Shown one piece after another: positions 3,161-25,670 of a DNA stretch of 64,000 bases (within the stretch, counting starts at the first letter, position 1; each line of letters starts with the position of its first letter). This DNA is from an uncultured Bdellovibrionales bacterium (lineage in GTDB: Bacteria; Bdellovibrionota_C; UBA2361; SZUA-149; DAOLCO01): NCBI GenBank assembly GCA_964612555.1, contig CAZTBW010000004.1:123713-187712 (forward strand), given 5' to 3'. The position numbers and the translations under genes are program-made. Below the pieces are notes generated by a model, which saw nothing but the letters and a program-made list of their open reading frames with translations, did no database searches and had not been told where the DNA came from.

Positions 3161-3936
3161 TTTCTCACTTGTTTCGCATTCTGTTAATTTCAGTAAGTCT
3201 ATTCTGCACAGCCAGCTGTAGTAAACGATACCAGAATCTTCCTGTTTTTACGAATTTTTCTATTCCTGATTCAGAAAATGGTTCCGTTGGTAGGTTTAAG
3301 ACGAGTTATCTGGCTGATCAGATTCACGCTTATTTTAGAGGTAATATGGCTGGTCCAATTGCAGTGACCACCTTTGTTGAAATAGATAATCTGTATCAGT
3401 CCTCTACATTTGGGAGAATCCTTGCTGAACAGCTCATCAGTGAACTAAGCATGAAGGGCTACAACGTAACTGAAATCAGACTCTCTGATGCAGTACAGAT
3501 CATGGAAAGCGAAGGGGAGCTGGGACTCTCAAGGCAAATTGACGTACTAAGACCTCAACAAAGTTTAAGTGGGCTGGTTGTGGGAACCTATGCGGTATCT
3601 AATGAGCGGGTCTATATTAATGCAAGACTTATCGACCCAAGAAGCTCAAACATAATTTCAGTAGGCTCGGTTGAAATGAGTAAAAGTAAGGAGATCTCTC
3701 AACTTCTACGAGGTAACTCATTTCCCTCAAGCCTGGAAAGAATCCCGGTACGACATTTGAGCTATCAAAAAGCTCCTACGCCCTACTACTTGTCCGGAAA
3801 TCCTTTTTTTAACACATCCCATGATATGAAAAGTGAAGAGTTCGCAAAAAAACTGATGCAGGAACCCCCAAAAGAAGATGCAAATTCTCTAAATGCAACC
3901 CCGGAAGAAGCAAAACTTCCTCCTGCACAAAAATAG
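3133..3936 (+). CDS. secreted (lipo)protein, possibly LPP20/FlgO-like
   Basis: N-terminal signal peptide with Cys (TASC); 267 aa; weak resemblance to FlgO/LPP20-type lipoproteins; divergent from preceding lipoprotein gene. Confidence 0.35.
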   Translation: MKNWSSSYSFSHLFRILLISVSLFCTASCSKRYQNLPVFTNFSIPDSENGSVGRFKTSYLADQIHAYFRGNMAGPIAVTTFVEIDNLYQSSTFGRILAEQLISELSMKGYNVTEIRLSDAVQIMESEGELGLSRQIDVLRPQQSLSGLVVGTYAVSNERVYINARLIDPRSSNIISVGSVEMSKSKEISQLLRGNSFPSSLERIPVRHLSYQKAPTPYYLSGNPFFNTSHDMKSEEFAKKLMQEPPKEDANSLNATPEEAKLPPAQK

Positions 3937-21832: not shown

Positions 21833-21905
21833 GGGGCGTTAGCTCAGTCGGTAGAGCAGCAGCCTTTTAAGTTGCGGGTCACTGGTTCGAATCCAGTACG
21901 CCTCA
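21833..21905 (+). tRNA. tRNA-Lys (anticodon TTT)
   Basis: GGGGCGTTAGCTCAGTCGGTAGAGCAGCAGCCTTTTAAGTTGCGGGTCACTGGTTCGAATCCAGTACGCCTCA; cloverleaf with GTTCGAATC T-loop, anticodon loop CTTTTAA. Confidence 0.9.
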
Positions 21906-22009
21906 CTCATCAAAGTAATCGTCTGTTTTTGGCTATCTTTGTCTCACATCTCATTACCCTATATAAATTATCATTTTATATAAACTTCCCACCTGACGAT
22001 CAATAACTC

Positions 22010-23452
22010 ATGGGGAAATATAATTCTTTTGACTTATTGGTTATCGGGAGTGGTCCCGGGGGACAGAAAGCAGCGATACAGGCTTTAAAGCTTGGAAAAC
22101 GTGTTGCCGTTATCGATAAAAATCCCGCACTTGGTGGAAACTGTCTTCATGATGGTACCATTCCAAGCAAGTCTTTCAGAGAAGCGATCATGCACCTTTC
22201 GGGATATCGGGAGAGAAGCCATTACGGACAGGCGTATCGGGTAAAACAAAATATAGAAATGAAAGACCTTACTGACAGAACTGAATCCATCAGTAAGGAC
22301 ATAGAACAAACTATCAGATCTCAATTACTCAGAAACAAATCTGAACTCATTACCGGTCTTGCTTCTTTTATTGATCCAAACACCGTGCGTGTAGCACATG
22401 AGAATACCGAAAGAATAGTTGAAAGTGAAAAAATAGTAATCGCTACCGGCACAAGTCCATGGAGACCCGACTCTTTTGAATTTGATGGAAAAATAATACT
22501 CGACAGTAACGATATTCTCAGGATGAAAAGGATACCGGGCTCACTCACCGTAGTTGGTGGTGGAGTTATTGGGTGCGAATATGGCTCCATGTTTTCAGCA
22601 CTTGGGGTAAAGGTTTCCATTCTTGAACAACGCGATTCCATTCTAAGTTTCCTCGATAAAGAGATCGTAGATTCACTGACCTATACCCTGCGACAGCAAA
22701 AGGCAGTAATCATAACCGGAGATAAAGTGCTTAAGTGCTGTATCTCTCCTGATGGTCGGGCGGTAACGTATCTTGAGAGTGGCAGAAGAATAGTAAGCCA
22801 GGTATTACTGGTTTCAGCAGGTCGTATAGGTAATGTGGAAGGCTTAAACCTCGATGCTATTGGCGTCGAAGCAAACGCACGGGGGCTTATTTCCGTAAAT
22901 ACCCACTTCCAGACTTCCCAACCTCATATCTATGCCGTGGGTGACGTTATCGGAGTTCCGGCACTTGCATCAACCAGCATGGAGCAAGGAAGAAAAGCAG
23001 CGTGCCATGCATTTGATCTTAACGAACACTATTTTAATATTCCGTTACCATATGGAATATATTCCATTCCGGAAATCGGGATGGTAGGCTCTACTGAAGA
23101 CGAATTAAAAGCTAAAAAGATACCCTACGAAATCGGGATTGCCCGTTTCAATGAGCTCGAAAGAGGAAAGATCATAGGTGACAGGCAGGGGGTTCTAAAA
23201 CTCCTGTTCCACAGAAATACGCTTCAGCTCCTTGGCGTCCATATCATTGGCGATGGTGCAACAGAAATGATTCACATTGGTCAAACCATTATGGGATTTC
23301 AAGGGGGAATCGATTATCTGGTAAATGCCGTATTTAACTACCCAACTTTAAGCCAGGTATATAAAACCGCCGCACTGGACGGGTGGAATAAAGTCGTTGC
23401 GAGCGATGGGCTTCCTGATGAAATTCCTTATATGGACATCGAGCTACACTAA
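22010..23452 (+). CDS. pyridine nucleotide-disulfide oxidoreductase, SthA-like (soluble transhydrogenase / Lpd family, single active-site Cys)
   Basis: VIGSGPGG FAD motif; GGNCLHDGTIPSK (second redox Cys replaced by Thr, as in SthA/UdhA); 480 aa. Confidence 0.7.
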   Translation: MGKYNSFDLLVIGSGPGGQKAAIQALKLGKRVAVIDKNPALGGNCLHDGTIPSKSFREAIMHLSGYRERSHYGQAYRVKQNIEMKDLTDRTESISKDIEQTIRSQLLRNKSELITGLASFIDPNTVRVAHENTERIVESEKIVIATGTSPWRPDSFEFDGKIILDSNDILRMKRIPGSLTVVGGGVIGCEYGSMFSALGVKVSILEQRDSILSFLDKEIVDSLTYTLRQQKAVIITGDKVLKCCISPDGRAVTYLESGRRIVSQVLLVSAGRIGNVEGLNLDAIGVEANARGLISVNTHFQTSQPHIYAVGDVIGVPALASTSMEQGRKAACHAFDLNEHYFNIPLPYGIYSIPEIGMVGSTEDELKAKKIPYEIGIARFNELERGKIIGDRQGVLKLLFHRNTLQLLGVHIIGDGATEMIHIGQTIMGFQGGIDYLVNAVFNYPTLSQVYKTAALDGWNKVVASDGLPDEIPYMDIELH

Positions 23453-23453
23453 T

Positions 23454-23807
23454 CTAAAACATCCCCACACTTCCAAATCCCGCACTGCGACTCCTTCGCT
23501 TGGGCTGGAACTGCTTGGAGATTGACTTTGATGGGGGACGACCTATTGAATATCCAACATTACCCATCGGGGTATCATACTTCTTCACATACTTACCCCG
23601 AACCCTCATACCCTGCCACGAAGGATCGTGTCTGGGCATATAGGAAGGAAGATCATTCTGATACCTCTCCTGACGATACTCTCTGGGAAGAAGCCGTTTA
23701 TCAACAGGACCACCATGAAAAGCTTCCTGACCCACCGCCACAGGAACAGAAATCCCAAAAAAGACAAAAGAAAATATAAATCCTGTTAATCTCACGTAGT
23801 CCATCAC
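23454..23807 (-). CDS. small secreted protein, unknown
   Basis: Signal peptide; Pro/Arg/Tyr-rich 117 aa. Confidence 0.35.
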   Translation of the reverse strand: MMDYVRLTGFIFSFVFFGISVPVAVGQEAFHGGPVDKRLLPREYRQERYQNDLPSYMPRHDPSWQGMRVRGKYVKKYDTPMGNVGYSIGRPPSKSISKQFQPKRRSRSAGFGSVGMF

Positions 23808-23907
23808 GTAATTTATATATACGATACCTTAACACCGTTATGGTTCAATCTCCCGCAAATATATCAAAAATTCTCCAGAAAATAAATTCAATACAGCTAA
23901 CTAACGA

Positions 23908-24058
23908 AAATTATTTAGTTAACCGCAGATGGACGCAGATAAATGCGGATAAGAATAAAAGAATATCTAACAAGCTGCACACCCCTGCAAACACGCACAT
24001 TAAATCAATCCCCCCTTTTTTTCCCATCTGCGTTTATCTGCGTCCATCTGCGGTTAAT
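23908..24058. repeat. inverted repeat with triple 10-bp-spaced GCAGAT iterons in each arm (MITE-like or regulatory)
   Basis: TTAACCGCAGATGGACGCAGATAAATGCGGAT (23908..) and its reverse complement CCCATCTGCGTTTATCTGCGTCCATCTGCGGTTAA (..24058); 26 bp perfect, ~100-bp spacer. Confidence 0.6.
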
Positions 24059-24163
24059 AACAAAAATTACATTTATAGCTGTAATTTTTCCGTCATATAT
24101 TACAATAATATCTATAACTACTTGAATTCAATAAAGATTTTGTTTATAGAAAATCGTCTTGTG

Positions 24164-24227
24164 CAATTAGGCGATTTAGGCGATTATTTTATAATCGATA
24201 ATAAAAATTGCATAAATCGCCTAATTG
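24164..24227. promoter_or_regulatory. perfect 15-bp inverted repeat in leader of AlbA_2 gene (candidate operator/attenuator)
   Basis: CAATTAGGCGATTTA (24164..24178) ... TAAATCGCCTAATTG (24213..24227), 34-bp AT-rich spacer with central ATCGAT; ends 15 nt before ATG. Confidence 0.45.
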
Positions 24228-24242
24228 ATTAGGGGTAAAAAT

Positions 24243-25580
24243 ATGAAATATCCAGGAAGAGAGGGTCGCCAGCTTGAATTTAAGGAAACACTGGAATCGT
24301 ATTCTAACCTTATAAAAACAGTTGTTGCGTTTTCTAATGACATTGGTGGAAAGATACTTATTAGGATTGAAAATAAGACAAATGAGGTTATTGGTCTAAG
24401 CGAGGCTGAAATAGATATTTATCTTGAGCGGATTCCCCAAGCTATTTTTGATGCCATCACTCCGACGTGCAGACCTTTAGTCAGAGTCTTTTCTTATCTT
24501 GGTAAACAGTTGGTCGAAATAGTTGTTTCTCAAGGGTATTCCAGACCTTTTTATGTCAACTCTTTGGGATTACAGAAGGGTACTTATATTAGAGTTGGTG
24601 CTCATACAAAACTCGCTGATAGCAGCTTTATTGAGGAGCTGGCAAGACAAGGTCTTGGCAGGTCTTATGATGAAGAACCTGTAGCCCCCTCAGAGCAGGT
24701 AGAATTTGATGTAGAGCTTTTAAAAGAACTATATCATACGACTTCGCCCAAGAACGAACAGCTATTAGCAGATAAAGTCTTAGTCGTAGATAGAATTACT
24801 TCGGAGCTAAAGGTTTCTGTTTCCGGGGTGCTGTTCTTTGCAAAAAATCCTCTTTTTTATATTCCACATTCTGAAATTTTACTTACCGTTCATTCGGGTA
24901 ATGAGATTGGAACTAAATTCAAGACGAAAGATTTTTCAGGCACTCTTGAGGCAATGCTTGAGTTTACAATGACTGAAATAGAGAAAGAACTTGTTGTTGA
25001 GCAAAGTGTTAAAGGGCTTACGCTTGAAACGCAAAAACTTGAAATTCCGGGCAATGCCCTAAGAGAGGTTTTGCTGAATGCTCTTATTCACCGAAGTTAT
25101 GACATAAAAGACAATATAAAAGTTAATATATTTTCCGATCGAATAGTCGTGTTCAGTCCTGGTAACTTCCCTGGACCTATCACGGACTTTCTCTCAGGTG
25201 TTTCCTACGCAAGAAACCCTCATTTACGGCAACTTGCAAGAAGAAAAGGTCTTGTAGAAAAAAGAGGATTAGGATTTCAGATTCTTTTCAGTAGCCTGAA
25301 AGCAAATGGTAACCCCGCCCCCTTAATTGAAGAAAAAGGCTTAGGTGTGTACGTAACTTTGTTCAGAAACAGGGTAACAAAAGAACAAATTCTACCAGAT
25401 CATTTACAAGCTCTTGAGTCCCTACGGGAGCAAAAGCTCAGCTTCCAGACTGGCGAAGTAGCAGAACTGCTCAAGGTAAACAGGAACACCGCAAGAAAAT
25501 GGTTAGAAGAGGCTTATGAAAAGAAAATAGTCAGAAAAACAGGAAAAGGTCGAGGAGCGAAATGGGAATGGAATGTATAG
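24243..25580 (+). CDS. AlbA_2 (Schlafen-like divergent AAA) + HATPase_c_4 + C-terminal HTH protein (so-called RecG-C-terminal-like transcriptional regulator)
   Basis: N-terminus REGRQLEFKETLES...VVAFSNDIGGKILIRIEN (AlbA_2/PF04326-like); C-region with HATPase-like NALIHRSY motif; ATG at 24243 with AGGGG RBS (ORF track uses TTG 24225). Confidence 0.65.
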   Translation: MKYPGREGRQLEFKETLESYSNLIKTVVAFSNDIGGKILIRIENKTNEVIGLSEAEIDIYLERIPQAIFDAITPTCRPLVRVFSYLGKQLVEIVVSQGYSRPFYVNSLGLQKGTYIRVGAHTKLADSSFIEELARQGLGRSYDEEPVAPSEQVEFDVELLKELYHTTSPKNEQLLADKVLVVDRITSELKVSVSGVLFFAKNPLFYIPHSEILLTVHSGNEIGTKFKTKDFSGTLEAMLEFTMTEIEKELVVEQSVKGLTLETQKLEIPGNALREVLLNALIHRSYDIKDNIKVNIFSDRIVVFSPGNFPGPITDFLSGVSYARNPHLRQLARRKGLVEKRGLGFQILFSSLKANGNPAPLIEEKGLGVYVTLFRNRVTKEQILPDHLQALESLREQKLSFQTGEVAELLKVNRNTARKWLEEAYEKKIVRKTGKGRGAKWEWNV

Positions 25581-25670
25581 CGATAGTAAGGTGGAAAGTA
25601 TCAAGGGTGCACCTCGGGTATAATTTCTCCCCTGCGCCCCTTTAGTTGCTTAGTGGAACTTGTCCTTATT

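Follow-up and report, generated by a model that had tools for sequence, protein, structure and literature searches.

An inverted-repeat hairpin in a Bdellovibrionales genome is probably a gene-less member of a widespread family of palindromic repeats associated with GxxExxY genes

REPs (repetitive extragenic palindromic sequences) are defined, in the available part of one study (PMC3733652), as palindromes of 20-40 nt carrying a GTAG or CGTC tag at one end. Gene-less copies of REPINs, inverted REP doublets that form hairpins, are interpreted as non-autonomous in the accessible part of another (PMC3337134). A different hairpin-bounded element is the intervening sequence (IVS) of the 23S rRNA of Coxiella burnetii, which is 428-444 nt long, has a 28-bp terminal stem, contains an open reading frame (ORF) whose predicted product is of 14.2 kDa, and is cut out by RNase III; such sequences have long been suspected to be selfish or mobile elements (PMC4990558). 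Here we analyse a 64,000-nt stretch of contig CAZTBW010000004.1 (assembly GCA_964612555.1, positions 123,713 to 187,712) from an uncultured Bdellovibrionales bacterium, referred to below as the window, and a hairpin-forming inverted repeat within it that is built from phased heptamers. We interpret this window hairpin as a gene-less member, similar to REPINs and to miniature inverted-repeat transposable elements (MITEs), of a widespread family of hairpins belonging to cassettes that encode a GxxExxY protein, a reading to which we assign a probability of roughly 0.6. Thus it probably is a selfish repeat and not a switch that serves the adjacent gene.

The window hairpin is 139 nt long (window positions 23919-24057), with arms of 32 nt each, and consists of the following parts:

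23919-23950, plus strand: left arm, TTAAC-CGCAGAT-GGA-CGCAGAT-AAA-TGCGGAT
23924-23930, 23934-23940 and 23944-23950, plus strand: left-arm heptamers, CGCAGAT, CGCAGAT and TGCGGAT respectively, with spacers GGA and AAA
23951-24025, plus strand: loop, 75 nt, without an ORF
24026-24057, minus strand: right arm, with the reverse complement TTAAC-CGCAGAT-GGA-CGCAGAT-AAA-CGCAGAT
24046-24052, 24036-24042 and 24026-24032, minus strand: right-arm heptamers, three CGCAGAT

A preliminary description of this DNA had reported an inverted repeat at this place, with units spaced by one helical turn. The repeat is indeed present, forms a hairpin and stands above shuffle expectation, and the period of its heptamers is exactly 10 nt. 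Some of the dimensions given there need correction. The perfectly complementary part comprises 25 bp (23919-23943 with 24033-24057) rather than 26 bp, and the distance between the arms, estimated at about 100 bp, is 89 nt between the perfect parts and 75 nt between the full three-unit arms. GCAGAT, described as occurring three times per arm, does so in the right arm, whereas the left arm contains it twice, its third unit being GCGGAT within TGCGGAT. Over the full arms, 30 of the 32 positions form Watson-Crick pairs and 2 are G.U on the plus strand; these arise from two left/right differences in the innermost heptamer, which give one U.G and one G.U pair. The loop is purine-rich at its 5' end (AAGAATAAAAG) and pyrimidine-rich at its 3' end (CTTTTTTTCCC), which adds a few imperfect pairs to the stem, and with the loop ends included an inverted-repeat search returned 59-nt arms of 80% complementarity. 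The two-heptamer pattern CGCAGATNNNCGCAGAT, allowing up to 2 mismatches, has 4 matches in the window, all inside the hairpin, compared with a shuffle expectation of 0.16 (0 of 100 shuffles reached 4). The fold is calculated at -64.7 kcal/mol for the plus strand (z = -12.0 versus shuffles) and -73.8 kcal/mol for the minus strand (z = -8.2), and the hairpin would form a stem of about 33 bp in any transcript crossing it. A terminator scan of positions 23400-24400 revealed no intrinsic terminator, and no run of T follows the right arm on the plus strand.

Similar arms are found far beyond this genome. One representative genome per prokaryotic species was searched with the triple-heptamer motif CGCAGATN3CGCAGATN3YGCRGAT, for which we calculate a chance expectation of about 1 match in 596 Gb; at least 120 loci in at least 12 phyla were identified, archaea and isolate genomes included. 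Among the matches listed, bacterial carriers belong to Cyanobacteriota, Planctomycetota, Verrucomicrobiota, Acidobacteriota, Chloroflexota, Nitrospirota, NC10, Latescibacterota, several classes of Pseudomonadota, Desulfobacterota, Bacteroidota, Spirochaetota and Bacillota, and archaeal carriers to Methanoperedens, Methanosarcinales and Methanobacteriota. A scan of IMG/VR with the same motif yielded 38 viral contigs, a few of which carry at least three hairpins. Stigonema (L013) and Chloracidobacterium (L072) have arms that match the 32-nt right arm of the window hairpin at every position.

The canonical arm of this family is (T)TA[A/G]C followed by three C-R-C-N-G-A-T heptamers, separated by 3-nt spacers that are usually purine-rich (GAA, AAA, GGA); other 10-nt-phased triplets at the listed loci are variants of the heptamer (CACAGAT, CGCCGAT, CGCTGAT). 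Family members have at least three such heptamers at a 10-nt period, and the window hairpin has 3 + 3. Its TTAAC/GTTAA fits the outer A-R-C triplet (TTAAC, TTAGC or GGAAC) that lies inside the inverted repeat, and its two arms face each other and can pair. The gene between the arms that characterizes the autonomous form, encoding a GxxExxY protein (TIGR04256), is missing from it. As its 75-nt loop contains no ORF and the window no GxxExxY gene, we class the window copy as a solo, gene-less hairpin, which is the commoner form among the motif matches listed. Among the same matches, a facing partner lies within 1.2 kb of 73 of 139 arms, with loops mostly of 10-200 nt. Gene-less hairpins elsewhere show the same purine-then-pyrimidine trend in their loops, which are otherwise unrelated, and copies within one genome may have additional flanking sequence in common (as at L080), their loops usually being different. 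At L080 several hairpins are spaced 1-1.5 kb apart. On the chromosome of Alicyclobacillus mengziensis (L088, 7227-7293), seven or eight tandem CGCAGATGAA units occur without a partner arm, and the 10-nt unit can therefore expand as a simple tandem repeat.

The two arms of an element covary. In a paired-arm alignment of 75 elements, including the window copy, 88.4% of cells are paired, compared with 82.5% after shuffling of partners, and 177 cells are changed on both sides, where 76 are expected; none of 500 shuffles was as high by either measure. When partners were slid by 1-3 columns, pairing fell to only 25-43%. The outer triplet takes part in the covariation (AAC with GTT in 36 elements, AGC with GCT in 29), and the variants TTAGC/GCTAA and GGAAC/GTTCC are seen beside TTAAC/GTTAA. 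The three positions adjacent to the arms are 84-97% complementary (63 elements), complementarity becomes random beyond about 8 nt outside the first heptamer, and no direct repeats were seen by eye in the flanks of these 63 elements. Taking into account the covariation of the outer triplet and the absence of flanking direct repeats, TTAAC/GTTAA is part of the inverted repeat and not, as had been suggested, a TTAA target-site duplication. Heptamer position 4 and the spacers are the least constrained parts of the alignment.

To characterize the surroundings of the motif, ORFs within 2.5 kb of the 120 listed loci were clustered (about 0.9 Mb of flanking sequence). No gene family proved to be generally associated with the motif at these loci: the largest clusters, of 4-6 loci, represent ubiquitous families (ABC transporters, Lon, DUF1501, SDR, GT2, kinases), and neither AlbA_2 nor a transposase or integrase is recurrent. 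The arms do enclose one recurrent family. All three elements with loops of 369-398 nt among the matches listed (L066, L072 and L105) enclose a protein of about 125 aa that matches Pfam PDDEXK_3 and NCBIfam TIGR04256 ("GxxExxY protein"), and PDDEXK_3/GxxExxY is the only family recurrently enclosed among those matches. ORFs extracted from the other loops of 190-800 nt, inspected without a family-library scan, are all short or of low complexity. Judged by eye, ORFs just 3' of arms are mostly of low complexity, with some proteins of viral contigs.

The association is equally visible from the side of the gene. We examined 80 GxxExxY loci from metagenomes, 74 of which were testable for inverted flanks; 38 of the 74 have strong inverted flanks of 10-nt-phased heptamers, and most of the others have weaker ones. 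With the three genome loci added, phased heptamers lie no more than 140 nt from the gene in 76 of 83 cases. The type of heptamer follows the GxxExxY protein tree, being CGCAGAC, ACAGGAT, CACGGAT or a member of the CGCAGAT/CACAGAT/CGCCGAT/CGCTGAT group. The gene-carrying form measures about 430-550 bp as a whole, and its gene, of about 125 codons, is co-oriented with neighbouring genes (37:10 upstream, 32:10 downstream). In many cases the left arm reaches the start codon or overlaps with it, as in ...CGCAG ATG AAC GCA GAT GAA, which encodes MNADE. According to our own reading of the contexts, about 25 of 69 GxxExxY ORFs (about a third) open in frame from an ATG within the array; a strict scripted criterion gives 13 of 69. 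When the spacer is GAA, the unit CGCAGATGAA contains ATGA, i.e. an overlapping start and stop (e.g. L140 1905-1931, L105 1168-1194). By our reading, three GAA-spaced units at period 10 provide each of the three frames with a TGA, and an ORF that begins with the first ATG of such an arm stops on the ATGA of the third unit.

The GxxExxY protein models as a PD-(D/E)XK nuclease and is predicted, from its model and its conserved catalytic residues, to be an active one. Four residues do not vary among 30 homologues, namely E29 (the glutamate of the GxxExxY motif), D68, E78 and K80, as would be expected of an active D...ExK site. Cas4, Dna2 and an alkaline exonuclease were named beside the modelled fold, and a sequence search of the PDB with the GxxExxY profile gave no match, i.e. 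no solved relative by sequence. The modelled fold would be compatible with a DNA or an RNA substrate, between which it cannot discriminate.

Arms and gene are distributed as a discrete unit. Pairs of cassettes from different contigs have 73-79% DNA identity over arms and gene only, and their flanks are unrelated. The hairpins also nest within each other: at L062 (3304-3480) a CACAGAG-type hairpin of period 9 lies in the loop of a CGCAGAT-type hairpin, and at L002 (1369-1543) and L066 (1800-2348) hairpins of CACAGAG (period 9) or CGCAAAG (period 8) type are similarly placed inside CGCAGAT-type loops. At L170 a GxxExxY gene is followed by three tandem solo hairpins of the same heptamer type. At L066 a single GxxExxY gene has a stack of several different left arms upstream of it. 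Small genes of toxin-antitoxin type (by eye HigB/RelE-like, PIN/VapC-like and nucleotidyltransferase) adjoin single arms at the following places:

L110, about 3420-3700
L115, near 1335
L005
L111, 1660-2040, versus L117, 2500-2720

The last two loci belong to Latescibacterota relatives that have different small genes at the same spot.

We propose that the gene and its arms would together constitute a selfish cassette, spreading within and between genomes, and that the phased heptamers may be the array that its nuclease recognizes for spread, either in DNA or in a single strand that has folded. The arms would, in addition, form a stem of the kind cut by RNase III in 23S rRNA intervening sequences, which could allow the cassette to sit inside host operons; GAA-spaced arms, with ATGA in all frames, might couple translation of the gene to any upstream ORF. 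Solo hairpins could then be non-autonomous or decayed copies, standing to the cassette as REPINs stand to the gene of the REP-associated tyrosine transposase (RAYT), and these gene-less progeny may have been carried between phyla partly by phages. The existence of such a class of selfish cassettes across domains, with arms that combine recognition, an RNase III-type stem and ATGA coupling and with solo hairpins as its progeny, is a tentative proposal, possible rather than probable. Processing of the window stem would likewise be of the RNase III type, and any local effect of the window hairpin would therefore be that of a structural barrier or processing site, not of a switch specific to AlbA_2.

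The window hairpin is located in an AT-rich gap of 435 nt (23808-24242). The preliminary description had placed it correctly, upstream of an AlbA_2 gene, in a gap given as 420 bp. On one side, a 117-aa minus-strand ORF starts at a distance of 111 nt; on the other, the ATG of the plus-strand AlbA_2/HATPase_c_4 gene (gene start 24243) follows 185 nt downstream of the hairpin, the two forming a divergent pair. A Pfam scan of the four neighbouring ORFs identified an Sth-like protein, the 117-aa ORF without a match, AlbA_2/HATPase_c_4 and a flagellin. Further features of the window are:

14526-14871, minus strand: RNase P RNA (class A)
21833-21906, plus strand: tRNA-Lys(UUU)
24164-24188 and 24203-24227: arms of a second inverted repeat, 25 nt, 88% complementary
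25671-27707, minus strand: flagellin, 678 aa, with PD40/beta-propeller repeats between Flagellin_N and Flagellin_C
29506-29581, minus strand: tRNA-Glu(UUC)

With the RNase P RNA and two tRNA genes, the context is that of an ordinary chromosome. The second inverted repeat, in which TTAGGCGATT-TAGGCGATT forms a direct repeat, has its end 16 nt ahead of the ATG of AlbA_2.

For the Sth protein, the best named relatives come from metagenome-assembled genomes of Oligoflexia/Bdellovibrionota. In the closest relative found (L206), whose Sth protein is 90% identical, sth and a 118-aa ORF are followed directly by a wzt-type ABC gene matching window positions 28109-29405; the 4.3 kb at 23808-28108, comprising the hairpin, the AlbA_2 gene and the PD40 flagellin, are absent. 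Three further relatives have other genes (NUDIX and others) after sth and lack the motif, which is absent from all 36 kb of DNA compared from the four relatives. The window hairpin is thus not conserved at the orthologous locus and borders, on one side, a 4.3-kb segment specific to the lineage, with a G+C content that is not clearly atypical in a composition profile. According to the preliminary description, an element that is single-copy and not conserved at orthologous loci would be fortuitous. The repeat is single in the window and absent at the orthologous locus, but since its family is conserved across phyla, this outcome does not make it fortuitous. Exact matches to the proteins of the window genes come from short contigs of one sample only, SRR16797977. 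A Logan contig of this sample that carries the AlbA_2 gene (L001) begins at window position 23960, inside the hairpin loop.

Several observations weigh against our interpretation of the window hairpin as a gene-less relative of mobile GxxExxY cassettes. Neither a strict nor a relaxed pattern detected a second copy of the repeat in the 64-kb window, no ORF anywhere in it encodes a GxxExxY protein, and the window copy lies between divergent genes, an arrangement seen for just 1 of the 23 solo hairpins that could be classified. Among the matches listed, about half of the arms are partnerless. Mismatches on the sense strand comprise 19 G.U and 13 A.C, counts that leave the choice between an RNA and a DNA form undecided. 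No filled and empty site pair with exact junctions was found among the orthologous loci compared (L111/L117, L170/L190, L105/L126 and others), the differences consisting of swapped toxin-antitoxin-like genes or extra genes and not of clean hairpin insertions. The context counts, i.e. orientation and neighbours, rest on ORF heuristics rather than gene calls. Finally, the viral contig L212 (IMGVR_UViG_3300031999_000479) carries eight single arrays of (GAA-CGCRGAT) x3-4 in the same orientation (arm ends at 2148, 3261, 3739, 4569, 4996, 5679, 6941 and 8379), which precede nearly every gene and are mostly followed by CGGAAGGAT and a start codon; neither a hairpin nor a GxxExxY gene is therefore required for a heptamer array to exist, or perhaps to act.

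These viral arrays also speak for the main rival explanation, in which the hairpin, or even a single array, is an RNA or DNA module of its own (for instance a stem that ends or processes transcripts, an insulator, or a site of translational stop and restart) that GxxExxY and other small genes exploit or insert into, so that the arms would be target or host and not part of a mobile cassette. Such a role is also suggested by the position of solo hairpins, 10-40 nt from flanking ORFs and mostly past their 3' ends (12 tandem, 10 convergent, 1 divergent), by single sense-orientation arms, which follow a co-oriented upstream gene 50:31 and often lie 1-35 nt past its stop codon, and by the GAA-spaced units, whose TGA in three frames overlaps an ATG each time; nesting in loops would be expected if loops were preferred insertion sites. 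However, a host element of purely structural nature would hardly be expected to keep its sequence across phyla, the heptamer type tracks the GxxExxY clade, and the DNA similarity of cassettes stops at the arms. Moreover, stop-forming spacers are not universal (those of the window are GGA and AAA), and the window hairpin is not followed by a terminator-like T run. We consider an independent module somewhat unlikely. An array of cooperative operator or activator sites for the divergent promoter region, serving for example autoregulation of AlbA_2/HATPase_c_4, is improbable. Six phased half-sites on one helix face, 185 nt upstream of the AlbA_2 start, and a weak sigma-70-like match shortly downstream of the right arm, at 24072-24101, would suit it, and cooperative regulator binding had been proposed in the preliminary description; yet no AlbA_2 or other specific regulator family recurs at the 120 listed loci, where the largest cluster (6 loci) is generic, the same 32-nt arm stands beside unrelated genes in unrelated phyla, and the promoter scan gave fewer sites than shuffles. 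If AlbA_2 has an operator of its own or a structure in its 5' untranslated region, the other inverted repeat (24164-24227), which immediately precedes the start of the gene, is a better candidate for it than the CGCAGAT hairpin.

The remaining explanations concern known classes of repeat. Terminal inverted repeats, small size, the lack of an ORF and TTAA at both ends recall a classical MITE derived from an insertion sequence with a DDE transposase and flanked by a TTAA target-site duplication, but the covariation of TTAAC/GTTAA within the inverted repeat, the lack of direct repeats, the absence of any transposase family from the approximately 0.9 Mb of flanking sequence and loops that differ even between copies of one genome make this origin very improbable. 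Of the three options in the preliminary description, MITE or transposon termini nevertheless come nearest to what was observed: the dispersed family and the arms as termini, namely of the GxxExxY cassette, hold good, while the target-site duplication has to be abandoned. An integron attC site, or the remnant of a gene-cassette array, is just as improbable. In attC sites the R''/R' boxes RYYYAAC / GTTRRRY have an invariant AAC/GTT, and unpaired spacer and extrahelical bases are typical of the stems. The imperfect palindromes of 60-140 nt ending in ...AAC / GTT..., the spacing of hairpins at L080 and the toxin-antitoxin-type genes by some arms resemble such arrays, and the window has AGTTAAC / GTTAATA at the position of the boxes. 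In about a third of the family, however, AGC/GCT replaces AAC/GTT; the arms pair continuously in the window fold and the arm alignment, with no unpaired spacer or extrahelical bases, the elements nest, and no tyrosine recombinase recurs near the listed loci (no recombinase cluster among the ORFs within 2.5 kb of them). The probability of a chance palindrome, or of iterons at a plasmid or phage replication origin as mentioned in the preliminary description, is close to nil. The single copy in the window and the AT-rich spacer would agree with either, but chance is excluded by the shuffle statistics, the family spans many phyla, no gene family recurs at the 120 listed loci, and the four Pfam-scanned neighbours (Sth, the hypothetical protein, AlbA_2 and flagellin) do not include an initiator, in a window that also contains RNase P RNA and two tRNA genes.

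Judging from sequence searches, the repeat family appears to have been undescribed before, and we rate it as an enzyme-associated palindromic repeat. Searches of Rfam at gathering and E-value thresholds, performed with the window and 13 related loci, returned only sub-threshold matches to generic miRNA/snoRNA hairpins. No description of these repeats was found in the literature searched by arm sequences and by protein-family and REP-type terms; GxxExxY occurs there in only three papers, one of which mentions it in passing. BLAST with the consensus hairpin gave no match among cultured phages and five plasmid records, in which no feature is annotated for the repeat, one match being overlapped by a cupin coding sequence. 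Database curators are reported to have noted that GxxExxY and the four-helix-bundle "23S IVS" proteins are large paralogous families.

If the window hairpin is indeed a gene-less relative of GxxExxY cassettes, a short sequence ignored by annotation pipelines would mark one of the most widely distributed prokaryotic repeat families, whose carriers include cyanobacteria and planctomycetes as well as archaea related to methanogens, and viral contigs. The large GxxExxY/PDDEXK_3 family would also gain its first functional context, as a nuclease tied to its own repeats in the way that RAYTs are tied to REPs. The arms probably break short-read assemblies, with which the start of contig L001 in the loop and the shortness of GxxExxY contigs agree; many GxxExxY proteins in the protein database lie on contigs of 0.5-1.5 kb. 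They also yield spurious small ORFs (e.g. ...ICVHLR... in the window ORF list) and are open to being mistaken for operators, as this case shows. The window hairpin does not constitute evidence of AlbA_2 regulation, and it should not be read as a regulatory site of this gene without experiment.

Like MITEs, the elements described here are small, dispersed and ORF-less, with terminal inverted repeats and a longer gene-carrying form, but they have no target-site duplication and no DDE transposase, and only their arms, not the interior, are conserved. As for the high copy number expected of MITEs, there is one copy in the 64-kb window, and elsewhere the loops differ between copies of one genome. 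With integron attC sites they have in common imperfect palindromes at the borders of small, co-oriented gene cassettes that lack a promoter, and a presence in many of the same phyla; their variable outer triplet, continuous tandem-heptamer stems, nesting and lack of a linked integrase set them apart.

The likeness to the REP/REPIN-RAYT system is closer: both consist of short extragenic palindromes, often inverted doublets forming hairpins, that are dispersed between genes, tend toward the 3' ends of genes and flank the gene of a cognate enzyme. The enzyme here is a PD-(D/E)XK nuclease (GxxExxY), whereas RAYT is an HUH/Y1 transposase, and the GxxExxY gene may occur many times and inside operons. 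The arms begin with (T)TARC-CGCAGAT, contain three phased heptamers and, going by the available part of the REP definition, lack the GTAG/CGTC tag. We know of no REP family with arms nearly identical across phyla and archaea, as seen here. Membership of the REP/REPIN-RAYT group was rejected, as no RAYT gene is enclosed at the listed loci and there is no GTAG/CGTC tag. ORF-bearing 23S IVSs resemble the gene-carrying form in their length (about 430-450 nt), terminal inverted repeats, ORF of about 120-125 codons and position within a host transcript. They differ in that the elements described here occupy intergenic regions of protein-coding genes, with no rRNA context and no conserved rRNA-like DNA common to the 200 loci compared, encode GxxExxY and not the four-helix-bundle S23p protein, and have arms with a conserved repeated heptamer. 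This membership was likewise rejected, the window copy lying between protein-coding genes. While the window element falls outside both families by their defining tests, REPIN/RAYT and the ORF-bearing 23S IVS appear, by analogy, to be its closest functional counterparts.

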